This document shows positions 4,768 through 53,432 of a stretch of DNA of 64,000 bases, piece after piece. Position numbers and translations under genes: made by a program. The stretch comes from Candidatus Limnocylindrales bacterium (GTDB lineage Bacteria > Chloroflexota > Limnocylindria > Limnocylindrales > CSP1-4): positions 87,717-151,716 of the forward strand of contig JBMFSS010000002.1 of NCBI GenBank assembly GCA_049967415.1, written 5' to 3'. The notes beneath the pieces were generated by a model. It did not search any database. It worked only from the letters and a program-made list of their open reading frames with translations, and was not told the DNA's origin. Each line of letters begins with the position of its first letter. Position 1 is the first letter of the stretch.

Positions 4768-5597
4768 GCGGCCCGGGCCATCCGCACCGGGATGCCGGCT
4801 GCCGCCATGGCGTGCTTGACGGTGGCGATTCCGTGCAGGTCCCGGTGAAAGATGGATGCAGCCAGGACCGCGTCTGCCCCTCCTTCGAGGATTGCAGCCA
4901 CCAGGTCGTCCGGGCTGCCGGCTCCCCCTGACGCCACGACCGGGACCGAGACCGCCGCTGTCACCGCGCGCAGCAACGGCAGATCGTAGCCCCCGCGCGT
5001 CCCGTCCCGGTCGATGGACGTCAGGAGGATCTCGCCTGCGCCACGCGCGGCCGCCTCGGCAGCCCAGGCGACCACGTCCCGACCGGTCCCGGTTCGTCCG
5101 CCATGAACGACCACCTCCCAGTGCTGGCCTCGCGCCAGTGGCGCCGTTGCGGCGCCGCCGCGAGTCCCGCCGTCCAGGGGCGGGCCTCCGGGGTCGAGAC
5201 GCCGGGCGTCGATGGAGACCACCACGCATTGGCGGCCGAACCGTCGGGTGCAGCGATCGATCAGCGCCGGATCACCCACCGCTGCAGTGTTGATGGCGAC
5301 ACGATCGGCACCCGCCCGCAGAACCGCGCGCATGTCATCCACCGAGCGGACCCCGCCGCCGACGGTGAGGGGCACAAAAGCCCGTTTGGCCGTCCGCTCC
5401 ACCGCGTCGAGCAGGGTGCTCCGTCCTTCCACTGCGGCCGTGATGTCGAGCAAGACAATTTCGTCCGCGCCGGCCGCCGCATAGCGCGCCGCGAGCTCGG
5501 CCGGATCGCCTTCGTCCTGCAGTTCGACAAAGCGGGTTCCCTTGACAACCCGACCATCCCGCACGTCCAGACACGGGATCACCCGGCGGAGCAGCAT
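4764..5597 (-). CDS. hisF: Imidazole glycerol phosphate synthase cyclase subunit
   Basis: 277 aa; [20 protein letters not shown]...[11 protein letters not shown]...GGGVRS...ASGGAG, the classic HisF (beta/alpha)8 sequence. Confidence 0.95.
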
Positions 5598-6331: not shown

Positions 6332-6992
6332 CGCTTCCCTGCCCGGGCGCCTCGCCCAGCCGCCACTCCTCGCCCAGCCGCCCCTTCGTGGAGGCCACTC
6401 CCACCCTCCTCGGGTCCCGCGCCAGGGCCCCACGAAGGGCCCGCGCGAGGGCCTTGAAGGCCGCCTCGGCCACGTGGTGGTCGTTGGCCCCCGCCGCCTC
6501 CAGGTGGAGGGTGATTGCCGCCTCCCGCGCAAATGACTCGAGCGCGTGTGGGATCAGCTGGGTGGAGAGCGCCCCCACCCGCTCGCCGCGGAAAGCCACC
6601 CGCACCACGGCATAGGGCCGGCCGGAGCAGTCAACGGCCGCTTCCGCCAGCGCCTCATCCATTGGAACGCGCGCCTCGCCAAAGCGCTCGATCCCGACTC
6701 CATCACCGACGGCCTCTCGGACGGCGCGACCGAGGGTCAGTGCAACGTCCTCCACGCTGTGGTGCTCATCGATCTCCAGGTCGCCGGTGGCTGTGATCGC
6801 GAGATCGAAAAGCGCATGGTGCGCAAGGGCCGTCAGGAGGTGGTCGTAGAAGCCGACGCCGGTGGCGATCTGCGCCATCCCGGTTCCGTCGAGGTCCAGA
6901 ACGACCCGGACGTCGGTCTCGCGGGTGGTGCGACGCACCTCCGCACGGCGCCCGCGAGGACCGGCCCCGGGGGTTGCCGAAGCCGGGTTCAC
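6321..6992 (-). CDS. hisB: Imidazoleglycerol-phosphate dehydratase
   Basis: 223 aa; RRAEVRRTTRETDVRVVLDLDG...HH..E..H motifs of IGPD. The start codon overlaps the hisC stop. Confidence 0.9.
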   Translation of the reverse strand: MNPASATPGAGPRGRRAEVRRTTRETDVRVVLDLDGTGMAQIATGVGFYDHLLTALAHHALFDLAITATGDLEIDEHHSVEDVALTLGRAVREAVGDGVGIERFGEARVPMDEALAEAAVDCSGRPYAVVRVAFRGERVGALSTQLIPHALESFAREAAITLHLEAAGANDHHVAEAAFKALARALRGALARDPRRVGVASTKGRLGEEWRLGEAPGQGSDAL

Positions 6993-24949: not shown

Positions 24950-25179
24950 ACGCCGCGCCGGCTCCGATGCCGGAGCGTGCCGCAGTCGCCGAACGGGCTC
25001 GCGGCGCTGCTGTTTGACCGGACCACGCTCCGCGGGCCGCGGACCGAGATCAAGCGGTTCCGGTGGTGGCCCTGGGGGTCTGGTGGTGGCTCGCAAGGCG
25101 GACGTTCGAGGCCGGCTGCGCCCTGGGGGGCCATTCGCCCCGGCTCGCAGTAGGATCGACGTGCGCGAACGGAGGTTGC

Positions 25180-26375
25180 ATGGCTCGGATCATCGTGTAC
25201 ACCGGCAAGGGTGGCGTGGGCAAGACCAGCATCGCTGCCGCCACGGGGCTGCTGGCTGCCGCCCGGGGCTATCGCACCATCGTGCTCTCGACCGATGCGG
25301 CGCACAGCCTGGCCGACTCGTTTGACTTGCCGTTGGGACCCGAGCCCACGCCCGTGGCCCCCAACCTCTGGGGCCAGGAATCGGAGGTCTCGCACAACAT
25401 CCAGAAGTACTGGGGCGTCATCCAGGACTACGTCTCCACGGTCTTCCAGTGGCGCGGGCTGGACGAGGTGATGGCCGAGGAGATGAGCGTCCTCCCCGGC
25501 ATGGACGAGCTGGCGAGCCTGCTCTGGATCGCGGAACACCATGACAAGGGCCAGTACGACCTGATCGTGGTGGACGCAGCACCCACGGGGGAGACGCTGC
25601 GGCTGCTCTCGCTCCCGGAGGCGGGCAAGTGGTGGATCGAGAAGATCTACCCGATCAGCCGGCGCATCGCACAGGTGACCAACCCGATTGTGGGGCGGGT
25701 GATCGGGATGCCGATGCCCGGCGACGAGGTCTACACGGCCGGCGAGCAGCTCTTCGCCCGCCTCGAGCACATGCACGACCTGCTGGCCGATCCGCAGCTC
25801 ACCTCGATCCGCCTCGTGCTCAACCTCGAGAAGATGGTGATCAAGGAGGCCCAGCGCGCCTTCACGTACTTCCACCTGTACGGGTATCCGACCGACCTGG
25901 TGGTGTGCAACCGGGTGGTCCCGGAGGATGCGGGCCCCTACTTCGAGGCGTGGCGCCAGGCGCAGGCGCGGTACTGGCCGGAGGTCGAGGCAGACTTCGA
26001 TCCGATCCCCATCCGGCGCGCGCCCTTCTTTGAGCATGAAGTGGTGGGCATGCCCATGCTGCAGCAGCTGGGCGCCGAGGTGTTCGGCGAGGAGGACCCG
26101 ACGGGCTTCTTCTACCGGGGCAATCCCTACCGCGTCACCCGGGAGGACGGCGCCTTCGTGCTCGCGCTCGAGCTGCCGTTCACCTCGAAGGAGGAGGTGA
26201 CGCTCCATCGCAACGGCGACGAGCTGGTGGTGCAGGTGGGGTGGTGGCGGCGCAACCTGATCCTCCCCCGGTCCTGGTGGATCTGCCCACCGGAAGCGCC
26301 GGGTTCGAGGACCACGTGCTGAAGGTCAGGTTCTCGGCCGGACCGAGAACGAAGTCAGGAGCGTCGAAGCGATGA
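25180..26375 (+). CDS. ArsA/Get3-family P-loop ATPase with a C-terminal ArsA_HSP20-like domain, apparently frameshifted near 26270
   Basis: MARIIVYTGKGGVGKTS (deviant Walker A)...DAAPTGETLRLL (ArsA signature). The C-terminal region is alpha-crystallin-like (EDGAFVLALELPFTSKEEVTLHRNGDELVVQVGWWRRNLILPR). The annotated frame ends ...SWWICPPEAPGSRTTC* at 26322. Another frame reads LVDLPTGSAGFEDHVLKVRFSAGPRTKSGASKR* ending at 26375, which fits an HSP20 C-terminal strand. The shift lies in ctcccccggtcc (C5). Confidence 0.75.
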
Positions 26376-26634: not shown

Positions 26635-27537
26635 GTGCCGTCCGGCACGTCCCAACGGGGCGGGCGGAGGGTACATACTCGTCCCGTGGACACGGCGCCG
26701 GCTTCGAAGGGGGAAGGTCGCATCCGGCTGTGCGCCGGCGACGGTTGCGTGGTGGTCGCGCCGGCGCAAGGGGGCCGCGTGGCGTCCCTGACCGTTGCGG
26801 GGCATGAGCTCCTGGTCACCTCGGCCGAGAGCGTGTACGGCTGGGGCGCGTTCCCCATGGTGCCCTTTGCGGGCCGGATCCGGCGGGGCGTGCTGCGTTT
26901 CGCGGGCCGAGCCCACGAGCTGCCGCGCACCATGCCGCCGCACGCCATCCACGGGACGCTGGCCGATGCGGCCTGGACGGTGGCCGAGCCACCCGCCGAC
27001 GATCGGGTCTTGCTGACCGCGCCGCTGCTCCCGCCGTGGCCGTTTCGGGGCCGGGCGTTCCACCGGCTCCAGCTGGAACCGGGGGCTTTGCACTTGGAGC
27101 TGCGCGTCGAGGCCGAAGAGCCGATGCCGGCCTGGGTTGGCTGGCACCCGTGGTTCCGCCGGCACGTGGAGGGCGCCGCGGGCGAGCTCGAGCTGGTGGT
27201 CCGGCCGGGCCGCATGTTCGTTCGGGATGCCGAGGGTCTGCCGACCGGCCTGGCCGTGCCGCCGTCCCCACGCCCCTGGGACGATGTCTTCGCGGACCTC
27301 CCGGCGGCTCCCCGGCTGCGCTGGCCGGGGCTGCTGACACTGGACGTGGAATCGGCCTGCGGCTACTGGGTGATCTACGACGAGCAGCCCCATGGGCTCT
27401 GCGTCGAGCCACAGACCGCCCCGCCCGACGCGGCCAACTGGATCCCCGAGGACGCCCTGCTGGTTGCGCCGGGGCGGCCGCTGGTGACTGCCATGACGCT
27501 TCGCTGGCGACCTGACGAGGAGCGCCGGTCAGGCTGA
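26635..27537 (+). CDS. Aldose 1-epimerase (galactose mutarotase-like) family protein
   Basis: YGWGAFPMVPFAGRIRRG...HELPRTMPPHAIHGTL...WHPWF motifs of the aldose-1-epimerase fold. Confidence 0.75.
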   Translation: MPSGTSQRGGRRVHTRPVDTAPASKGEGRIRLCAGDGCVVVAPAQGGRVASLTVAGHELLVTSAESVYGWGAFPMVPFAGRIRRGVLRFAGRAHELPRTMPPHAIHGTLADAAWTVAEPPADDRVLLTAPLLPPWPFRGRAFHRLQLEPGALHLELRVEAEEPMPAWVGWHPWFRRHVEGAAGELELVVRPGRMFVRDAEGLPTGLAVPPSPRPWDDVFADLPAAPRLRWPGLLTLDVESACGYWVIYDEQPHGLCVEPQTAPPDAANWIPEDALLVAPGRPLVTAMTLRWRPDEERRSG

Positions 27538-27596: not shown

Positions 27597-28526
27597 TCAG
27601 GCGAAGGCCACCGCCGCATAGCCGACGGTGCGATATGGATCGCCACCGGGCACGTCGGCCGAGGTGCCCGCAGCGAGCAGGGTCCCGGCCCGCAGCCCCA
27701 TCGCCCGCCAGGCCGCGACGGCGAAAAGGACCGGCTCGATGCCGCACATGCCGCAGGCAATCCCGGGGATCGCGGAAAAGCGGACCCCGGCCTCGCGGGC
27801 CGCGAGTTCCTCGCCGTCCAGGGCCAGGAGCGGCGGGAGCAACGTGCGGGTCACGGCCTCGGCCTCTGCCGCCGGCGGATAGTGCGCGAAGTCAGAGCTG
27901 GCCACCAGCGCCACGTCCCGCCCGGCGGCACGCTCCCGGGCCAGCAGCTCGCCGAGGCGCGCACCGGCCGCCATGCCCTCTTCCGTCGACTCGAAGGAGA
28001 CCAGCAGCGGCACAATGGCTGTGCCCGGGCAGGCCCGCACCACGAACGGCAGCTGGACCTCGATCGAGTGCTCCCGGAGGTGCGCCTCCGGGGCCGCCGC
28101 GAACGGGGTCCCCAGGCCCAGGATCCGACCGCTCAGCGCCGCGTCCACCGGGACGTCGCCGAGCGGCGTCCGCCACGCGCCCGAGGGCCAGATGGCCACG
28201 CCACGCAGCCCCGCCACGTAGTGGTTGGTGCCGGCCAGGACCACGGTGGCCGGGGGCTGCGCCCGCAGCGTGGCCCAGGCCGCGGCCGCGATGGGCCCGG
28301 AGTAGACCAGCCCGGCGTGCGGCACCACCAGGCCCACCGGACGCTGTCCAGGGTGGGACCCAGCGCCGGCGGCCGCGGCCTCGAGCTGTCCGTCCACCAG
28401 TCGCTGCAGGGCCGCCGCCGATCCCGGATAGAACGTCCCGGCGTGGGCGGGCCGCCGCACCGGTTCGGGCGGCGCGAACCCCTGCTCGCGCACGTCAGGG
28501 CTCCACGTCCAGGCCCACGCCGGCAA
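27597..28526 (-). CDS. AmmeMemoRadiSam system protein B (MEMO1-family)
   Basis: AHAGTFYPGS...VVPHAGLVYSGPIAA...SSDFAHYP motifs of the MEMO/extradiol-dioxygenase-class-III-like family. It overlaps the upstream radical SAM gene by 32 nt. Confidence 0.8.
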   Translation of the reverse strand: MPAWAWTWSPDVREQGFAPPEPVRRPAHAGTFYPGSAAALQRLVDGQLEAAAAGAGSHPGQRPVGLVVPHAGLVYSGPIAAAAWATLRAQPPATVVLAGTNHYVAGLRGVAIWPSGAWRTPLGDVPVDAALSGRILGLGTPFAAAPEAHLREHSIEVQLPFVVRACPGTAIVPLLVSFESTEEGMAAGARLGELLARERAAGRDVALVASSDFAHYPPAAEAEAVTRTLLPPLLALDGEELAAREAGVRFSAIPGIACGMCGIEPVLFAVAAWRAMGLRAGTLLAAGTSADVPGGDPYRTVGYAAVAFA

Positions 28527-29673
28527 GCGGCGTGCCGCAGTGCGGGCAGGCGTTCCCCCGCAGCGCGACGCGCGACACCCGGTAGCCGTCCCGGCGGATC
28601 AGGACCCGGCCACAGCCGCTGCAGCGCGTGTCGGTGTCGTCCTCGCCGGGGACGTTCCCCACGTAGACGTGCCGCAGTCCCGCCCGGCGCCCGATCTCGG
28701 CGGCGTCCCGAAGCGTGGCAACCGGCGTGACGGGCCAGTCGGCCATCCGATACGCGGGGTAGAACCGGCTCAGGTGCCAGGGCGTCTCCGGGCCCAGCTC
28801 CCGCGCGATCCAGTCGGCCGCCGCGGCCAGCTCGGCCGGGTCGTCGTTCTCGCCGGGCACGACCAGCGTGGTGACCTCCACCCAGATCCCCAGCCGTCGC
28901 ATCGCGACAAGGGTCTCCTTCACGGGCTCCAGGCGCGCGCCGCAGATCCGGCGGTAGAAGCGGTCGTCGAATGCCTTGAGGTCCACGTTGGCCGCGTCCA
29001 GCACCGGCGCCAGCAGTTCGAGCGCCTCCGGGGTCTCGTACCCGTTGGTCACGAACAGGTTGACGAGGCCGGCTTCGTGAGCGAGGCGCGCGGTGTCGAG
29101 CGCGTACTCGAAAAAGATGGCGGGCTCCACGTAGGTGTAGGCGATCGAGCGGGCGCCGGCCGCCAGGGCCTCCTGGACCACCTGTTCGGGCGGGAGGGTG
29201 CGCGTCGGGAGGTGGAACCCTTCGCGGGGGGCCTGGGAGATCTCCCAGTTCTGGCAGTAGCGGCAATGGAAGTTGCAGCCCACCGTGGAGATGGAGAAGG
29301 CGTCGGTGCCGGGAAGGACGTGGAAGAAGGGCTTCTTCTCGATCGGCTCGACGTGGACCGCCACCGCTTCGCCGTAGACCAGGCTCACCAGGGTCCCGTT
29401 CCGGTTCTCCCGGACCTGGCAGATCCCTGAGCGGCCCTCCCGGATCACGCAGCGATGGGCACAGACATCGCAGCGGATTGTCTGCGCCGCCGTGTGTCCC
29501 GAGAGGTGCGCGAGCGGGTCCTCCACCGGGGTGGCCAGCAGCGCCAGTGCGACGCCCCGGCCCTGGAGCGCGGGGTCCCTCGGGCGGCGTGGGTCGGGTG
29601 GCGCCCCGACCGTTGCGCCGTGCACAGCGGGGGCGTTGGTGTAGGTGTCCTGGTCCTGGACGCGAAATGGCAT
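28495..29673 (-). CDS. AmmeMemoRadiSam system radical SAM enzyme
   Basis: An N-terminal Cys cluster (CDVCAHRCVIREGRSGICQVR) is followed by the radical-SAM motif GCNFHCRYCQNW. The C-terminus ends in a CSGCG...CPHCG zinc-ribbon-like segment. Starts at MPFRVQDQ. Confidence 0.8.
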   Translation of the reverse strand: MPFRVQDQDTYTNAPAVHGATVGAPPDPRRPRDPALQGRGVALALLATPVEDPLAHLSGHTAAQTIRCDVCAHRCVIREGRSGICQVRENRNGTLVSLVYGEAVAVHVEPIEKKPFFHVLPGTDAFSISTVGCNFHCRYCQNWEISQAPREGFHLPTRTLPPEQVVQEALAAGARSIAYTYVEPAIFFEYALDTARLAHEAGLVNLFVTNGYETPEALELLAPVLDAANVDLKAFDDRFYRRICGARLEPVKETLVAMRRLGIWVEVTTLVVPGENDDPAELAAAADWIARELGPETPWHLSRFYPAYRMADWPVTPVATLRDAAEIGRRAGLRHVYVGNVPGEDDTDTRCSGCGRVLIRRDGYRVSRVALRGNACPHCGTPLAGVGLDVEP

Positions 29674-29791
29674 GCGGGAAGTATGCTCGCCAGCTCGCCT
29701 GGGCGACATGGCCGGAGGGGGCCGAATCATGCCGCCGTCCGGCCCGGGCCGGTGGATGCGCCCGGCATCGGCGCCTCCCCGCCTTGCGCCC

Positions 29792-30217
29792 TTACGTGGT
29801 GCGGAGCAGGTACGGCGACAGCCGGGCGGCGAGCTGCGGTTTCGGCAGCGCGCCCACGATCCGGTCCACTTCTCGGCCGTGCTTCAGGACGACCAGGGTC
29901 GGGATGCTGAACGCCTGGAACCGCTGGGCCAGGACGGGGTTATCGTCCACGTTCACCTTGACGACCTTGAGCCGCCCGGCGTACTCGCGGGCCAGCGCTT
30001 CCAGGGTTGGTGCCACGAAGCGGCAGGGTGCGCACCAAGGTGCCCAGAGGTCCACCAGCACCGCCACGGACGCATCCGCTTCCTGGTCGAAGGTGTCGTC
30101 GGTGGCGTGGACGAGCCACGGCAGGGTGGCCTTGCACGATGCGCAGACGGGCACCCCTCGGGGGCTGGGCCGAATCCGGTTTCGCGTTCCACAGGCCGGG
30201 CAGGTCAGGATGGAGAC
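29792..30217 (-). CDS. trxC: Thioredoxin with N-terminal zinc-ribbon (Trx2/TrxC-type)
   Basis: CPACGTRNRI...CASCKATL zinc finger, then WAPWCAPCR (WCGPC-type active site) ...FSIPTLVVLKHG. Probable GTG start near 30217. The long N-terminal extension in the ORF track is unsupported. Confidence 0.75.
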   Translation of the reverse strand, partial: VSILTCPACGTRNRIRPSPRGVPVCASCKATLPWLVHATDDTFDQEADASVAVLVDLWAPWCAPCRFVAPTLEALAREYAGRLKVVKVNVDDNPVLAQRFQAFSIPTLVVLKHGREVDRIVGALPKPQLAARLSPYLLRTT

Positions 30218-30270
30218 CGGCCCCTGGGGGCGCGGTCCAGTTGCGGCGTCGCCGGGTGTCCGAGGACCGT

Positions 30271-31722
30271 TCACGAGGGTTTCGAGAGGATCGCGATCGC
30301 CCGCAGCAGCTGCGTATCGCCGCTGGCGTTCAGCTGGGCAGGCGTGAGCTGGGAGGCGTCCGACGGCGACAGCGGCGAGGCGGTACTGGGCAGCGCCACC
30401 ACCACGTTCGGCGTGATCCCCTTGTGCCAGATCTGGTGTCCCTTGGGCGTGAGCCACTCCGCCACGCCGATGCGGACCCGCGAGCCGTCGCTCAACGCGT
30501 AGGTCTCGAGGACGGTTCCCGTCCCGAACGTGGTGACCCCCACGATGGTCGCCCGCCCGTTGTCCTGCAGCGCGCCGGCCAGGATCTCGGCCGCGCTCGC
30601 GGTGCCGTCGTCGACCAGCGCCACCATCGGGATCCGGGTGGCCGCACCACCCGACTGCGCCCGGGTGGTGGTCTCCTTGCCTGCGGCATCGCGCTGGATG
30701 AAGACCACGGTGCCGGCGGGAAGGAACTGCGAAGCCGCGCCCACCGCCTCGGAGACGTACCCCCCGGGATCGCCGCGGAGATCCAGCACCAGCGAGGTCG
30801 CGCCCGCGGCCTGGGCGGCCTTCAGCGCCGTCTTCAGCTGGGACGCCGCGTCCTGGGCGAACTGCTGGAGCTGGACGTCGGCGATGTGGGTGCCCGGCAG
30901 CATCGCCCAGGTGACGTTGGGCACGTCGATCGGGGCGCGCGTCACGGTGACCTCGCGGCTGGTGGTGGCGCCCGGATCGAGCACCTTGACCCGCACGGTG
31001 GAGCCGGTCGGACCGCGCAGCTCCGCGGCCAGGGTGTCGAACGAGTCGCCGGTCACGTCCCGGCCGTTGACGGCCAGGATCAGGTCGCCGGCCCGCAGTC
31101 CCGCCTTCTGTGCTGGGCTGCCCTCGAAGACCGAGACGATCGCTGGCCCCTGGGCCTTCATCGAGATCTCCACCCCGATCCCCTGGTAGGTCCCGGACAG
31201 GTCGGAGGAGAGGGCCGCGTACTGCTGGGGCGTCAGGAAGTCGCTGTGGCCGGTGTCGCCGAGCGCCTGGACCAGGCCCCGGATGGCGCCATAGGTCAGG
31301 TTCTGTGGATTCAGGGCAGCCCGGTCCACGTAGTGCTGCTCGACCAGGTTCCAGGCCTGGTAGAGCAGGCCGATCTCCGTTCGGGCATCCGCGGGGGGTC
31401 CGCTGCTGATGGAAGCCGTCCCGGCCGTGAGCCCGCCGCGGGCGTAGCCGACGCCGGCCAGGAAGCCCCCGGCCGCCACAATGGCCACCACCAGGAGCGC
31501 GGCCAGGCCCCGGACCGCCGCCTGGGACCGCTGCGGGGGCGAGGGCGGCCAGGTCGGGACGGCCGCAGCCAGGGCAGGGGTCGCCTCGACGCGCCGCGGC
31601 TCATCGCGGGACGGCTCTGCGGGAAGCGCCTCCCGGGGAGGTGGCTCCGCCGTCCCCGGTTCGCCGGCGGGGGGCGCGTCCGTCCGCGGGTCCTCGCCTG
31701 ATGGTTCATCGAGCGGCAACAT
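30271..31722 (-). CDS. ctpA: C-terminal processing peptidase (S41 family) with N-terminal membrane anchor
   Basis: Starts MLPLDEPSG. Has a TM segment (LAALLVVAIVAAGGFLAGV), a PDZ domain (GIGVEI...GSPAQKAGLRAGDLILAVNG) and an S41 core (LVLDLRGDPGGYV...ASAAEI). Confidence 0.85.
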   Translation of the reverse strand: MLPLDEPSGEDPRTDAPPAGEPGTAEPPPREALPAEPSRDEPRRVEATPALAAAVPTWPPSPPQRSQAAVRGLAALLVVAIVAAGGFLAGVGYARGGLTAGTASISSGPPADARTEIGLLYQAWNLVEQHYVDRAALNPQNLTYGAIRGLVQALGDTGHSDFLTPQQYAALSSDLSGTYQGIGVEISMKAQGPAIVSVFEGSPAQKAGLRAGDLILAVNGRDVTGDSFDTLAAELRGPTGSTVRVKVLDPGATTSREVTVTRAPIDVPNVTWAMLPGTHIADVQLQQFAQDAASQLKTALKAAQAAGATSLVLDLRGDPGGYVSEAVGAASQFLPAGTVVFIQRDAAGKETTTRAQSGGAATRIPMVALVDDGTASAAEILAGALQDNGRATIVGVTTFGTGTVLETYALSDGSRVRIGVAEWLTPKGHQIWHKGITPNVVVALPSTASPLSPSDASQLTPAQLNASGDTQLLRAIAILSKPS

Positions 31723-31790
31723 GGACGTGCAGCCTAGCACGGGGACGACCCCGTGCCCTTGCCGCCGGGACGCTCGTGGCTGGCGAGAGA

Positions 31791-32087
31791 TCAGCCGATG
31801 TGGGACTGGGGTGGCAGCGCGCCAGGCGATCCGGCCGGTGTGGGGGCGACCGCCCCCGTCTCCACCACGGATCCCGGTGCTGCCGGCGGGAGTGCCGCGG
31901 TTGATGCTGGGGCCGTCCCGGCAGGGGTCGAGGCTGGCGCCGCCTCCTCGCGCCCGCTCGCGGCGTCCTGGAAGCTGCGGATGGCCTTTCCGAGTGCCGC
32001 GCCCGTCTCGGGCAGCTTGCCTGGTCCGAGCACGAGTAGGGCGATCGCGAGCAGCAAAATCACGTGCCAGGGTGACAGTGCGCCCAT
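31791..32087 (-). CDS. tatA: Twin-arginine translocase subunit TatA/E
   Basis: MGALSPWHVILLLAIALLVLGPGKLPETGAALGKAIRSFQDA is the canonical TatA N-terminus. It ends in an Ala/Pro-rich tail. Confidence 0.88.
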   Translation of the reverse strand: MGALSPWHVILLLAIALLVLGPGKLPETGAALGKAIRSFQDAASGREEAAPASTPAGTAPASTAALPPAAPGSVVETGAVAPTPAGSPGALPPQSHIG

Positions 32088-32273
32088 ATCGTCTTCCTCC
32101 ATCGAGGTCGGCGAAGCGTCCCGCCGAGGAGCCTGGGCCGCGCCGACCGTGCGGGTACAGCCTAGCAGGCGCGGCCCGGCGCGCACCGGCGAAGATGGGC
32201 CCCGGCTGCCCACGGTCGCGACGCCGTGATGCCCATCCGGCCCCTGTGCGCCCGAAGAGAACCCGATGGGCGA

Positions 32274-33041
32274 TCAGTCGGCGAGGTCCACCAGCACCGG
32301 CGCGTGGTCGGAGGGGATCGGGTTCTTGCGGGCGTCGCGATCGATCTCCACGGCCGTGGCGCGTGCGGCCAGCGGCCGGGTCAGCAGGAGGTGATCGATG
32401 CGCATCCCCTGTCCCTTGTGAAACGAGCCGCCCCGGTAGTCCCACCAGCTGAACCGGCCGCCTTCCGGGTGGTGCTGCCGGTAGACGTCAACCAGCCCCC
32501 ATTCGAGGAGCGCATCGAACGCGGCCCGTTCTTCGGGCGTCACGTGGGTCGCCCCCGCAAAGGCCGCCGGGTCCCACACGTCCAGGTCGGTCGGCGCCAC
32601 GTTGAAGTCGCCGCCCAGCAGGAGCGGCTCACCCGGGTCGCGAGCCCCCAACCAGGCACGCAACCGCCCGAACCAGAGGAGTTTCGCCAGCCAGAACTCG
32701 CTGCCGACCGCGCGCCCGTTCGGGGCATAGAGGCTGGCCACGCGGACCCCGCCGCACCGGGCAGCCAGGAAGCGTGCCCCATCCGGGTCGGGGCCCTCGG
32801 CCAGACCCGGTTCGACCTCCGTGAGGCCCACGCGGCTGGCGATGGCGACGCCGTTCCAGCGGCCTTCGCCGTGATGGGCGAGCTCGTAGCCGGCAAGCCG
32901 GAACGCCAGTTCCGGCGCGGCTTCGTCCGTCAGCTTCGTCTCCTGCACCAGGAGCACGTCGACCTGGCGCCGCGCCAGCCACTCGGTGACCTTGGGCAGG
33001 CGGGCCTTCAGCGAGTTGACGTTCCAGGTCGCGATCCGCAT
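32274..33041 (-). CDS. xthA: Exodeoxyribonuclease III
   Basis: MRIATWNVNSL...LLVQETK...DFNVAP...SDHAPV motifs of the EEP-family AP endonuclease. Confidence 0.9.
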   Translation of the reverse strand: MRIATWNVNSLKARLPKVTEWLARRQVDVLLVQETKLTDEAAPELAFRLAGYELAHHGEGRWNGVAIASRVGLTEVEPGLAEGPDPDGARFLAARCGGVRVASLYAPNGRAVGSEFWLAKLLWFGRLRAWLGARDPGEPLLLGGDFNVAPTDLDVWDPAAFAGATHVTPEERAAFDALLEWGLVDVYRQHHPEGGRFSWWDYRGGSFHKGQGMRIDHLLLTRPLAARATAVEIDRDARKNPIPSDHAPVLVDLAD

Positions 33042-33092
33042 GCCATCCCCTGCTGACCCGCCAGCCGCGCCTCCTGCCGACTGGACCCTCGG

Positions 33093-33536
33093 CTACCGAG
33101 CGAGCGTCGCTGCGAGCGAGATCTCGACGTTGCCATGCAGCGCGCGCGAGACGGGGCACCCGTCCTTGGCGGCGGCCGCGATGGCCTGGAAGGCTTCCTC
33201 AGAGATGCCTGGCACGCGGGCTGTCACCTGCAGCTCGGAGCTGGCCACGGACCACTGGCCGTTGACGCGGTCGAAAGTGACGGTCGCGCTCACCTCGAGC
33301 TGCGTGGACGGCGTCCCGGCCTTCGCGAGTTCACTCGAGAGCGCCATGGAGTAGCAGGCCGCATGCGCCGCTGCAATGAGTTCCTCAGGGCTGGTCCGGC
33401 CCTCGGCTGCCTCCGTGCGAGAGGCCCACGTCACGGGGAGATCGGTGAACGCTCCGCTGGTGGCGGCTGAGACTCGGCCGGAACCGGAGGCGAGGTCGCC
33501 CTGCCAGACGACCCGGGCGCGACGACTGGTTGCCAT
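33093..33536 (-). CDS. osmC: OsmC/Ohr-family peroxiredoxin-like protein
   Basis: ~147 aa; ...AAAHAACYSMALS...KDGCPVSRAL, with the two conserved Cys of OsmC. Confidence 0.8.
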   Translation of the reverse strand: MATSRRARVVWQGDLASGSGRVSAATSGAFTDLPVTWASRTEAAEGRTSPEELIAAAHAACYSMALSSELAKAGTPSTQLEVSATVTFDRVNGQWSVASSELQVTARVPGISEEAFQAIAAAAKDGCPVSRALHGNVEISLAATLAR

Positions 33537-33670
33537 CTTGAGCCTCACTGCTGCTGGGGTTGCCCGTTGCGGCCCTCATGGTCCCACACTCGGGGGCCTC
33601 CCGCAGTCGTCGCGGTACCGCCCGGTCCGCGGTCGCCGGGCGGGCGTATTCTTTTCGGTGGGAGGCGCCC

Positions 33671-51251: not shown

Positions 51252-53432
51252 TCAGGTGGCTCTCGCGCGCCGGCTGGATCTCCGGGCCCGTCCGACCGGT
51301 GTCGAAGCCGCGGGCAAGTAGAGCTGCTCGACGTACTCCTCGAGCATGCGCGTCGTGGAGAACTGCCAGATGGTGCTGCGGATGGACTCGCGCACCGTGG
51401 CCAGCCAGGCCCCGGGGAGCCCGTCGCGATCGCGCTCGTAGTAGCGCGGAACCACCTCTTCCTCCAGCAGCCGGTAGAGCTCCTGCGAGTCGGCCCAGTC
51501 CTGTGCCCCCTCGTCGGGGTTGGTGGTGCGGCCGCCGATGGCCCAGCCGTTGGTGCCCGACCACGCCTCGTCCCACCAGCCGTCGAGGACCGAGAGGTTG
51601 ACGACGCCGTTGGCCGCCGCCTTCATGCCGCTCGTCCCGGATGCCTCCAGCGGTCGTCGCGGGTTGTTGAGCCAGACATCCACGCCCTGGATCAGGAACC
51701 GCGCGACGCGCATGTCGTAGTCCTCGATGATGAAGACGCGGCCTTTCAGGCGTGGCGAACGGCTCCGTTCCCAGATCTCCTGGATCACGCGCTGGCCCGG
51801 CCGGTCGGCGGGATGCGCCTTGCCGGCGAAGATCACCTGGACCGGCCGCTCGGGGTTCCAGAGGATGCGGGCGAGCCGATCCTCGTCGCTGAAGAGGAGG
51901 GAGGCGCGCTTGTAGGTCGCGAAGCGGCGCGCGAAGCCGATCGTGAGTGCAGCCGGGTCGACCACGTGGCTGAGGGCCTGGAGCTCTTCGGGCGGCTCGC
52001 CGTGGCGCGCGAGCTGGCTGAGCAATCGGCCGCGTGCGAAGTGCGCGAGCTCGAGCTTCTGCCGCGCGTGCGCCGCCCAGAGCTGGTGGTCGCCGATCTG
52101 GCCGAGCCGGTCCCAGAAGCGGCGGGCCCGAACCTCGGGGTCCAGGTCGTCGAGATCGCCGTCAAGCTCCTCGTAGAGGCTGCGCAGCGGCCGTCCGACC
52201 CAGCTCGGCACGTGGATCCCGTTGGTGATGCCGAGGATGGGGCGCTCGAGGATCCCCTGCCAGGTGGCGTTGGCGGTCTGCGCATGCAGGTGGCTGACCG
52301 CGTTGGCCCCGTTGGTCAGGCGCAGGCTGAAGGCCGTCATGTCGAACTGCGACGGGTCACCTTCTGCGCCGCGCCCCAGCTCCAGGACCCGGTCGAGGTC
52401 TACCCCGTCCGGCCCGCCCAGGGGTGCAGCGAGCCGCTGGACAAGGCCCGCGTCGAATCGCTCGTTCCCGGCCGAGACGGGCGTGTGAATGGTGAAGACG
52501 GAGTTCCGGCGGACCTGCGCCGCGGCCTCTTCGAAGGGAGTGCCCTGGGCTACCAGCTCGCGGGTGCGCTCGACCAGCATCATGGCCGAATGCCCCTCGT
52601 TGAGATGCCAGACCACCGGCTGGATCTGCAGTGCCCGCAGCGCCCGCACCCCGCCCACGCCCAGGACCATCTCCTGGCAGAAGCGCATCTCGCGGCCGCG
52701 GACGTACAGCATCCCCGTGATGGGGCGGTCCTCGGGGGCGTTCTCGCCGATGTCGGTGTCGAGGAGGAGCAAGGGGACGCGGCCCACCTGTGCCAGCCAG
52801 ACGGCGCACCAGACGGTCCGGCCCGGCAGCTCCACCGGCACCACCAACGGGTCGCCCTCGGACGAGGCGACCCGCAGCAGCGGCAGGCGCAGCGGGTCGT
52901 AGTCGGGGTAGGCGTGCTCCTGGTGGCCGTCGGCGTCGATGGTCTGGCGGAAGTAGCCGCGGCGGTAGAAGAGCCCCACGGCCACGAAGGGGAGGGCCAT
53001 GTCGGAAGCCGTCTTGGCGTGGTCCCCGGCCAGGACCCCGAGCCCGCCGGAGTAGATCCCCATCGACTCGGTCAGCCCGTACTCGGCGCAGAAGTAGGCA
53101 ATCGGGCCGCTCAGGGCGTTGGCGTGGTGCCGTGCGAACCAGTGCCCCGTGCCGTTCGCCATGTAGTGCTGGAAGTCCCGCATGATGGTGTCGTACTCGG
53201 CCATGAACGCGGGGTTCTCGAGCAGGTCGCTCCAGCGCTGGTGGCTCATGAGGATCGAGATGGGGTTGCGATAACGCGACCACGCCCCCGGGTCGATGCG
53301 GGAGAAGAGCTGCCGCACCTCGGGGTGCCAGGTCGAGTACAGGTTGTACGCGAGGGCCCGGAGCCCTTCCAGCTGGGCCGGGAGCCGAATGGCCGGTGGC
53401 AGGAGGGTCGGAACAGAGGGAGCGGTCTGCAT
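51252..53432 (-). CDS. glgP: Alpha-glucan phosphorylase (glycogen/maltodextrin phosphorylase, GT35)
   Basis: 726 aa; ...AYFCAEYGL..., EASGTSGMKAAANG (PLP-Lys motif of GT35). Confidence 0.9.
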   Translation of the reverse strand: MQTAPSVPTLLPPAIRLPAQLEGLRALAYNLYSTWHPEVRQLFSRIDPGAWSRYRNPISILMSHQRWSDLLENPAFMAEYDTIMRDFQHYMANGTGHWFARHHANALSGPIAYFCAEYGLTESMGIYSGGLGVLAGDHAKTASDMALPFVAVGLFYRRGYFRQTIDADGHQEHAYPDYDPLRLPLLRVASSEGDPLVVPVELPGRTVWCAVWLAQVGRVPLLLLDTDIGENAPEDRPITGMLYVRGREMRFCQEMVLGVGGVRALRALQIQPVVWHLNEGHSAMMLVERTRELVAQGTPFEEAAAQVRRNSVFTIHTPVSAGNERFDAGLVQRLAAPLGGPDGVDLDRVLELGRGAEGDPSQFDMTAFSLRLTNGANAVSHLHAQTANATWQGILERPILGITNGIHVPSWVGRPLRSLYEELDGDLDDLDPEVRARRFWDRLGQIGDHQLWAAHARQKLELAHFARGRLLSQLARHGEPPEELQALSHVVDPAALTIGFARRFATYKRASLLFSDEDRLARILWNPERPVQVIFAGKAHPADRPGQRVIQEIWERSRSPRLKGRVFIIEDYDMRVARFLIQGVDVWLNNPRRPLEASGTSGMKAAANGVVNLSVLDGWWDEAWSGTNGWAIGGRTTNPDEGAQDWADSQELYRLLEEEVVPRYYERDRDGLPGAWLATVRESIRSTIWQFSTTRMLEEYVEQLYLPAASTPVGRARRSSRRARAT

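Follow-up and report, generated by a model that had tools for sequence, protein, structure and literature searches.

Gene content and gene starts at the locus

The locus lies on the reverse strand of the window, which is the whole stretch of 64,000 nucleotides that was analysed; the DNA derives from a high-GC Chloroflexota bacterium with affinity to Limnocylindria. In the direction of transcription, a gene for an S41 C-terminal processing peptidase that is membrane-anchored and contains a PDZ domain (30271..31722; TIGR00225, 276.7 bits; Pfam Peptidase_S41 and PDZ) is followed by a gene for a TrxC-like thioredoxin (trx, 29792..30274, 160 aa), a spacer of 118 nt from the trx stop to the next start (29674..29791), the gene for the AmmeMemoRadiSam radical SAM protein (rSAM, 28495..29673) and the gene for a Memo-like protein (AmmeMemoRadiSam system protein B, 27597..28493). 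On the forward strand, an aldose-1-epimerase-like gene (26635..27537; Pfam Aldose_epim, 72.9 bits) converges with the 3' end of Memo, as had been described before, with 59 nt separating their stop codons.

The AmmeMemoRadiSam system is represented in NCBIfam/TIGRFAMs by TIGR04335 (AMMECR1-like, A; Pfam PF01871), TIGR04336 (Memo-like, B) and TIGR04337 (radical SAM). The rSAM protein scored 362.5 bits with TIGR04337 (cutoff 220) and Memo 211.7 bits with TIGR04336 (cutoff 26) as well as 158 bits with Pfam Memo. Both proteins thus exceed the curated cutoffs, which bears out the original prediction of an AmmeMemoRadiSam pair; the locus is an ordinary rSAM-Memo pair of this known system and adds no new component to it. 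Besides these scores, it shares with the system its intact cysteine motifs, its Memo metal-site residues and its tight gene coupling. It differs in lacking AMMECR1 over the 27-34 kb of flanking sequence on each side, and in two features of its rSAM: an N-terminal extension of ~60 aa, specific to the clade, with the motif [DE]x[YF]TxxP, and an 11-aa insertion ahead of the first cysteine.

ATG 29673 is the most likely start of the rSAM gene. It yields a protein of 392 aa, a length found in its closest homologs, and sets the gap to trx at 118 nt. Substitutions in the first 65 codons were skewed to the third position, which supports this start, and at the level of codon comparison the N-terminal extension proved to be translated and under purifying selection. 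No Shine-Dalgarno sequence precedes the ATG. For Memo, a 32-nt overlap with rSAM had been proposed, which requires TTG 28526 (309 aa), an unlikely start with no Shine-Dalgarno sequence. GTG 28493 (298 aa), separated from the rSAM TGA by a single nucleotide, preceded by GGAG 7 nt upstream and called likewise in the relatives L002 and L084, fits better; depending on the Memo start, the two genes in the window are therefore 1 nt apart or overlap by 32 nt. In L002, L084, L085, L086 and L170-L172, the two genes are separated by 1-13 nt or overlap by 4 nt, while in L001 a later called Memo start leaves 166 nt between them. The arrangement of TGA, one base and GTG with its own GGAG probably couples the translation of rSAM and Memo. 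Moreover, one apparent in-frame rSAM-Memo fusion of 688 aa was found (P0243).

The spacer between trx and rSAM contained no terminator or promoter consensus and no Rfam hit, and its folding z-score was -0.29. A Guanidine-II match of 22 bits on the opposite strand stayed below threshold. The final ~75 nt of the spacer share homology with the sequence after an EamA transporter gene in L002, L004 and L084. A -10-like hexamer, CATACT (29680..29685, reverse strand), may act as the promoter for a rSAM-Memo transcript without a leader: [CG]ATACT recurs in the equivalent place in the window, L001, L002, L004, L084 and L085, whatever the upstream gene, while the surrounding non-coding bases diverge, and CATACT-N6-ATG occurs only once in the window. 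The conservation of this box 6-7 nt before the rSAM ATG suggests a leaderless mRNA, and from the box and the missing Shine-Dalgarno sequence we infer that rSAM-Memo probably has its own promoter. A generic sigma-70 scan did not recover the box; promoter rules in Chloroflexota are poorly known.

The rSAM and Memo proteins carry intact cysteine and metal-site motifs

The CNFHCRYCQNW motif and the additional N- and C-terminal cysteine clusters previously noted in rSAM were all present. In an alignment of 25 homologs, the CxxxCxxC cysteines (C133/C137/C140), the N-terminal C-x2-C-x3-C-x9-C (C68/71/75/85) and the C-terminal C-x2-C-x21-C-x2-C (C351/354/376/379) were invariant. The AlphaFold2 model of rSAM reached a pLDDT of 87.6, with the ~60-aa N-terminal extension, which holds the D-x-Y-T-x-x-P motif, predicted to be disordered. 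Among solved folds, the model came closest to the pyruvate formate lyase (PFL) activating enzyme (PDB 3cb8, 3c8f, 8fo0; Foldseek E=1e-13, target-normalised TM 0.78-0.81), a match ~100,000-fold better than that of the next family. The predicted core fold and the CxxxCxxC cluster are common to both proteins, but their identity is only 16-17%, the window rSAM falls far below the PflA HMM cutoff, and it has additional Cys4 modules at both termini and, instead of an evident glycyl radical enzyme, Memo as its partner.

In Memo, residues H59, H91, D201, H204 and C250, at least 96% conserved among 47 homologs, are all present. The protein is homologous to human MEMO1 (PDB 3bcz, 7kq8) over residues 13-205 (E=3e-13), and the PHAG, NH and SSDFxH motifs of the metal site align. 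The match is nevertheless distant (53 bits), and the prokaryotic Memo, unlike its human counterpart, shares an operon with a radical SAM enzyme, a component missing from animals.

The thioredoxin gene is linked to the S41 gene

The zinc-finger thioredoxin was, as previously stated, found immediately upstream on the same strand, and CPAC-x15-CASC and WCAPC could be read from its translation. Its start had been placed near 30217; the actual start is GTG 30274. The protein passes the generic thioredoxin model TIGR01068 (104.4 against a cutoff of 96.8) and remains below the TrxC equivalog NF008229 (105.3 against 125). It resembles E. coli-type thioredoxin 2 in its N-terminal zinc finger of two CxxC pairs and its WCxPC, with HMM positions 4-135 of 141 aligned across the zinc finger, and differs from it in the score below the equivalog cutoff and in the coupling of its gene to an S41 protease gene. 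The GTG start of trx overlaps the S41 TGA (GTGA) in the window and in L001, and the corresponding overlap in L002 is ATGA. Comparison with the homologs in L002 and L084 places the likely start of the S41 gene at ATG 31722.

In L002 and L004 (relatives at 89% and 82% identity; L004 is CAVZXW01), an EamA transporter gene stands between trx and rSAM. In L084, a 78% relative, trx is internally deleted to a 38-codon relic next to an intact rSAM-Memo pair, and in the 61-67% relatives L085, L086 (ERZ25039602) and L170-L172 (L170 is GCA_040960765.1) trx is absent. A single S41-Trx open reading frame in L004 was considered as a fusion and rejected, since this metagenome-assembled genome has a further S41 fragment in a different frame, which indicates a frameshift. 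This comparison shows trx to be linked to S41 and dispensable. Judged by gene order, trx closes the S41 unit, lies outside the rSAM-Memo module and neighbours it by chance; it would have come to lie beside rSAM only after the intervening EamA gene was lost in the lineage of the window and L001.

Only the rSAM-Memo pair is conserved across changing contexts

Upstream of rSAM-Memo, we found S41 with Trx, S41 with EamA, S41 alone, an acetyltransferase, or a V-ATPase operon plus a hydrolase. The aldose-1-epimerase-like gene is syntenic in L001, L002, L004 and L084, and not in L085, L086 and L170-L172. Across these contexts, gene-order comparison shows the rSAM-Memo pair to be the only conserved element.

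No AMMECR1 was detected in the 64 kb by motif scan, jackhmmer or an HMM of 31 AMMECR1 sequences (E<=10), in line with the original prediction. Matches to AMMECR1 obtained by tblastn at 53169-53381 (best E=0.011) were rejected as spurious, as they lie inside an open reading frame (51252-53432) that, assigned by eye, reads like an alpha-glucan phosphorylase. Gene context was compared across 169 rSAM loci, a sample biased to the best 80 matches of each scan and containing many truncated loci. The description of the system as usually tripartite turned out to be weaker than stated. Outside the clade of the window, AMMECR1 lay within 10 kb in all 15 well-flanked loci in which Memo is adjacent to rSAM. 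The rSAM gene stood alone, with neither partner nearby, in 52 of the 73 loci flanked by 5 kb or more in each direction; the missing AMMECR1 in the window thus says little about the genome. Eight sampled rSAM proteins, six of them lone, scored 330-377 bits with TIGR04337. A metagenome scan with the window rSAM, used for context statistics only, gave no relative above 65% identity. Among 6229 matches of an AMMECR1 profile search, two that were inspected on long contigs were canonical clusters of divergent AMMECR1 and rSAM-Memo from other lineages.

The closest comparison is provided by sister Chloroflexota/Limnocylindria loci (L005, L007, L009, L041, L087, L089-L091), which share the order rSAM-Memo on a single strand and whose rSAM proteins are 55-65% identical to that of the window. 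In contrast to the window, these loci have a divergent AMMECR1 immediately upstream of rSAM, a short rSAM N-terminus (the 354-aa form) and no S41 or thioredoxin gene. The layout with AMMECR1 unlinked marks one Chloroflexota clade, in which rSAM also has the N-terminal extension.

We consider it probable, at roughly 0.72, that rSAM and Memo form a self-contained module with its own promoter, that AMMECR1 resides elsewhere and that trx comes from the S41 unit by chance. The two genes, rSAM then Memo, would have moved as a module within this clade with no AMMECR1 nearby. We assume here that the genome most probably encodes AMMECR1 at another site.

Loss of AMMECR1, a thioredoxin partner and glycyl radical activation as alternatives

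AMMECR1 might instead have been lost from the genome of the clade, leaving rSAM-Memo to work alone, with the rSAM extension and its [DE]x[YF]TxxP motif perhaps taking over part of the AMMECR1 role. This appears unlikely to us, although several observations point in its direction. AMMECR1 was missing from all 12 clade loci (the window, L001-L004, L006 on JBGQBD01, L084-L086 and L170-L172), nine of which have ~10 kb or more on both sides (the window, with 27-34 kb each, L001, L002, L004, L006, L086 and L170-L172), while outside the clade the well-flanked loci with adjacent Memo keep it. Moreover, the translated and selected extension carries the motif in 9/9 scanned clade loci (the window, L001-L004, L006 and L084-L086) and in 0/8 sister loci with divergent AMMECR1; the N-terminal motif in L170-L172 was read from the protein alignment. 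However, a single phylogenetic event lies behind the correlation between the extension and AMMECR1, which therefore has little statistical weight, and dispersal is so common (the 52 loci of 73) that the local absence of AMMECR1 is weak evidence. The three TIGRFAMs families of the system were defined by genome-wide co-occurrence, which also counts against a two-component variant, and the extension is ~60 aa long and predicted to be disordered, whereas AMMECR1 is a folded domain of ~190 aa. A three-protein system reduced to rSAM and Memo, with the disordered rSAM tail as a built-in replacement for the lost AMMECR1, a docking element or even a substrate, is distinctly unlikely. If true, it would provide a minimal system for solving the chemistry of Memo and AMMECR1.

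The original prediction had taken thioredoxin as the reductant or partner of rSAM-Memo; in its fullest form, this would make it a dedicated redox partner, co-transcribed with the pair and standing in functionally for AMMECR1. The two lie on the same strand only 118 nt apart, trx is adjacent or nearly adjacent to rSAM in four related loci, and the conserved cysteines of Memo and AMMECR1 could need reduction. A terminator between trx and rSAM had been named as the finding that would speak against the link; no terminator-like site was found, so that read-through co-transcription from the S41-trx unit is possible, and the evidence against the thioredoxin link comes from comparative synteny. Here, the expected co-occurrence failed to appear: a thioredoxin flanked rSAM in 4 of the 169 loci only, namely the window and its three closest relatives, all at least 82% identical to the window, and it was missing from the 61-67% relatives and from ~165 other rSAM loci. 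The translational coupling of trx is to S41 and not to the rSAM gene, EamA intervenes in L002 and L004, and rSAM-Memo persists intact beside the trx relic of L084. Furthermore, thioredoxin (~-270 mV) is too weak for the [4Fe-4S]2+/1+ couple of radical SAM enzymes, for which flavodoxin or ferredoxin normally serves as the reductant. A thioredoxin partnership is thus strongly disfavoured, as far as synteny can tell, and we hold its co-transcribed form to be very improbable. The case illustrates that adjacency of genes in one genome can mislead, and the thioredoxin lead should be dropped.

That rSAM would be a glycyl-radical-enzyme activase, as implied by the JGI name of many of its homologs ('pyruvate formate lyase activating enzyme') and by PFL-AE being both the closest solved fold of the model and the best PDB sequence match (27 bits), is scarcely credible given that the activase models stay far below their cutoffs (PflA 42.5 against 231.75, YjjW 52.1 against 250.2, NrdG 35.6 against 131.15) while TIGR04337 passes, that the conserved neighbour of rSAM is Memo and not a glycyl radical enzyme, and that a scan of the window for RVxG[YFW] gave four matches only, in unrelated frames well away from the pair. 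The neighbours within 10 kb of rSAM-Memo have other assignments.

Proposed chemistry of the rSAM-Memo module

Conservation of both Memo and AMMECR1 extends from archaea to humans; MEMO1 has been tied to cell motility and cancer, and AMMECR1 linked with an X-linked syndrome. An extended AmmeMemoRadiSam neighbourhood was reportedly described by Burroughs et al. in 2019 (J Biol Chem). A literature search for the TIGRFAM names and for prokaryotic experiments returned no experimentally known function, in agreement with the earlier description of the system as biochemically uncharacterised, and the prokaryotic link to rSAM is the best clue to the biochemical function of Memo and AMMECR1. The clade of the window offers an autonomous, tightly coupled rSAM-Memo pair, fused in one case and with no AMMECR1 nearby, and thereby a convenient minimal construct for co-expressing the two proteins and looking for their substrate.

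For the self-contained rSAM-Memo module, we infer the following mechanism as a whole. The CxxxCxxC [4Fe-4S] cluster of rSAM, in a PFL-AE-like fold, would cleave SAM reductively and take a hydrogen atom from a bulky substrate, which may be a protein, a peptide or an RNA. The electrons for the cluster would be expected from flavodoxin or ferredoxin and not from thioredoxin. The N- and C-terminal Cys4 modules would ligate a second metal centre or bind the substrate, and Memo, whose His/His/Asp/His/Cys metal site is intact, would act on that substrate too, in a coupled step that depends on metal. Balaji and Aravind, who first noted the AmmeMemoRadiSam neighbourhood in 2007, proposed RNA base modification (PMC2034487). 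Related rSAM domains also occur in peptide-processing systems (PMC7159879), and RiPP recognition elements are fused to some Memo-like proteins (PMC12710340).

A radical SAM-Memo pair of the AmmeMemoRadiSam type

The window has a G+C content of ~72%, and its nearest relatives are MAGs of uncultured Chloroflexota (Limnocylindria/Chloroflexia). On the minus strand, genes for TatA, an S41 C-terminal processing peptidase, a thioredoxin (trx), a radical SAM protein (rSAM) and a Memo-like protein follow one another 5' to 3'. The rSAM gene (28495-29673) scored 362.5 bits against TIGR04337 (cutoff 220) and the Memo-like gene (27597-28493) 211.7 bits against TIGR04336 (cutoff 26), indicating that the predicted pair is real. 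The membrane-anchored S41 peptidase (30271-31722) matched TIGR00225 with 276.7 bits. The thioredoxin (29792-30274) passed the generic model TIGR01068; it also aligned to the TrxC model, zinc finger included, with a score under that model's cutoff. The motifs quoted in the original prediction (CNFHCRYCQNW, CPAC-x15-CASC and WCAPC) were each found in the window proteins, and the additional cysteines towards both ends of rSAM are invariant across 25 homologs. Taken together, the HMM scores, motifs and N- and C-terminal cysteines uphold the initial observation. The aldose-1-epimerase-like gene said to converge on the 3' end of the pair was also confirmed (26635-27537, plus strand). The locus is a genuine, if ordinary, representative of a known system that is biochemically uncharacterised.

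The nearest homologs of rSAM have 392 aa and begin with MP(F/L)R, matching a start at ATG 29673. Compared with three relatives, the first 65 codons differ mostly at third positions (19/24, 36/48 and 38/61), indicating that this region is translated; with this start, the trx-rSAM spacer is 118 nt. The 32-nt overlap previously described between rSAM and Memo requires a Memo start at TTG 28526, which has no ribosome-binding site. GTG 28493, which has GGAG 7 nt upstream and lies 1 nt past the rSAM TGA, fits better, and the Memo homologs of two related loci (L002 and L084) are called equivalently. The two genes are tightly coupled whichever start applies. Moreover, the JGI homolog P0243, a relative of L002, is a 688-aa in-frame rSAM-Memo fusion (junction ...LAGIGLDT/REVRAPAHAGTFYP...). 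It comes from a 2.5-kb contig, belongs to the 90%-identity cluster of the protein P0002, and is either a true fusion or an assembly error; if real, it would strengthen the case for a joint function of the two proteins.

Genomic context of the thioredoxin gene

The thioredoxin had been proposed as reductant or partner of the pair, with a start near 30217. We place the start at GTG 30274, the sole canonical one that retains the zinc finger. It overlaps the S41 stop (GTGA), as it does in the related loci L001 (GTGA) and L002 (ATGA). We assembled 172 related loci by scanning genomes and metagenomes and by looking up exact proteins; the sample is weighted towards the best 80 matches of each scan and includes many truncated loci. 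Among all 169 loci with a TIGR04337-type rSAM, a real thioredoxin was found in the flanks of only four (the window, L001, L002 and L004), a distribution that does not bear out co-occurrence of thioredoxin with the system.

The order is S41-Trx-rSAM-Memo in L001 (95% rSAM identity to the window), and S41-Trx-EamA-rSAM-Memo, with an intervening EamA transporter gene, in L002 (89%) and L004 (82%). L084 (78%) reads S41-(trx relic)-EamA-rSAM-Memo; its relic is a 38-codon mini-ORF (6406-6522, plus) that keeps the GTGA overlap of its start with the S41 stop and the final ~24 codons of trx (HRIVGALPKPGLAARLLPHL) but has lost both zinc finger and WCxPC site. Further away, the order becomes S41-rSAM-Memo-CDGSH in L085 (65-67%), acetyltransferase-rSAM-Memo in L086 (63%) and V-ATPase operon-hydrolase-rSAM-Memo in L170-L172 (61-64%).

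These arrangements have a straightforward evolutionary reading: trx lies 3' of the S41 gene and was deleted in one lineage, where rSAM-Memo remained intact; it came to adjoin rSAM in the window/L001 lineage only, through loss of EamA. A scan of the spacer found no terminator-like site between trx and rSAM. The usual reductants of radical SAM clusters are flavodoxin and ferredoxin, whereas the potential of thioredoxin is too high for them, which agrees with synteny in arguing against partnership. With trx coupled to S41, separated by EamA in two loci and reduced to a relic in a third, its association with rSAM-Memo appears to be an accident of local gene order. It should be noted that the single 638-aa S41-thioredoxin ORF of L004 (7133-9049, plus) was not retained as a fusion, since this MAG carries another S41 fragment in a different frame, which points to a frameshift.

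Absence of a linked AMMECR1 gene

As originally predicted, AMMECR1, the third usual partner, is missing from the window: nothing credible was found there by an LRGC[IM]G signature scan, by jackhmmer, by an HMM from 31 AMMECR1 sequences (E<=10) or by tblastn. The jackhmmer seeds were verified by Pfam (138-168 bits) and recovered 30 AMMECR1 genes at other loci. The best tblastn match (E=0.011) falls inside an ORF (51252-53432) read as alpha-glucan phosphorylase.

We then considered the 73 loci in which rSAM is flanked by 5 kb or more on each side. rSAM was alone in 52, accompanied by both Memo and AMMECR1 in 15, by AMMECR1 only in 1 and by Memo only in 5, every one of the latter in the window's clade. 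Eight sampled rSAMs, six of them lone, scored 330-377 bits on TIGR04337 and are therefore true family members. Dispersal of the three genes is thus common, so that an AMMECR1-free window says little about the genome. In contrast to the window's clade, a divergently transcribed AMMECR1 gene adjoins rSAM in the sister Chloroflexota loci L005, L007, L009, L041, L087, L089, L090 and L091.

A clade-specific rSAM extension and the upstream region

Residues 1-60 of rSAM (29494-29673, minus) form a ~60-aa extension in which the motif [DE]x[YF]TxxP is conserved (DTYTNAP in the window). Among the loci compared, it is confined to the window's clade, at loci without an adjacent AMMECR1. The extension is predicted to be disordered (AlphaFold2 pLDDT 36-59) and is under purifying selection. 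Its correlation with unlinked AMMECR1 is suggestive only, because it reflects a single phylogenetic event.

The final ~75 nt 5' of the rSAM ATG can be aligned between the window, L001, L002, L004 and L084, irrespective of whether trx or EamA precedes them. A CATACT hexamer (29680-29685, minus), 6-7 nt 5' of the ATG, is invariant in the four relatives and reads GATACT at the same position in L085. There is no Shine-Dalgarno sequence between it and the ATG, and CATACT-N6-ATG occurs once in the whole window. A generic sigma-70 scan did not call this box, and the trx-rSAM spacer matched no Rfam family and had an unremarkable folding energy. CATACT is a candidate -10 box that would drive a leaderless rSAM-Memo transcript.

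Fold and possible function

The AlphaFold2 model of rSAM is confident (pLDDT 87.6, pTM 0.88). In a Foldseek comparison, the nearest solved fold was that of pyruvate formate-lyase activating enzyme (E=1e-13; TM 0.78-0.81 on target), ahead of NifB, TYW1, viperin and LipA by about five orders of magnitude; the same enzyme is the sole PDB sequence match. The target of this enzyme is a protein loop. rSAM nevertheless scored below the cutoff of every activase HMM tested and is therefore activase-like rather than an activase. Memo retains the metal-site residues that it shares with human MEMO1.

As a best guess, rSAM would use a SAM-derived radical to abstract hydrogen from a macromolecular substrate, and Memo would carry out a metal-dependent step coupled to this reaction. 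Related hints come from the literature: peptide-processing systems contain relatives of the Memo-AMMECR1-type rSAM domain (PMC7159879), RiPP recognition elements are fused to some Memo-like proteins (PMC12710340), and an older proposal for the system was RNA base modification (PMC2034487). Of mild interest is the Chloroflexota clade itself, in which rSAM-Memo is an autonomous module, the N-terminus of rSAM is modified and AMMECR1 is unlinked.

Other features of the loci

Upstream of the pair (30271-33548, minus), genes for an OsmC peroxiredoxin, exonuclease III, TatA, S41 protease and Trx have an oxidative-stress flavour. The corresponding region of L001 (2059-9876) additionally encodes an ArsC/Spx-like protein and a Ni-SOD with S26 peptidase, and in L085 a peroxiredoxin adjoins S41. 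A weak Guanidine-II riboswitch match opposite the S41/TatA genes (31737-31776, plus; 22.4 bits, gathering 32, E=0.25) is probably due to chance. ARAGORN called a 102-nt tRNA-Arg(ACG) at 4925-5026 (minus), with the anticodon at position 40; no tRNA in the entire window reached the Rfam gathering score, and hence either the call is doubtful or the gene is unusual. An ATPase of the ArsA/GET3 type that carries an HSP20-like domain at its C-terminus is encoded in the window (25063-26322, plus) and in L001 (12980-14427), where a small AF_1253-family gene comes next and FMN reductase and UbiA prenyltransferase genes adjoin. In L170, L171 and L172 (1-9970), a complete V/A-type ATPase operon and an alpha/beta hydrolase gene directly precede rSAM-Memo, and NiFe hydrogenase and Hyp maturation genes lie near the pair.
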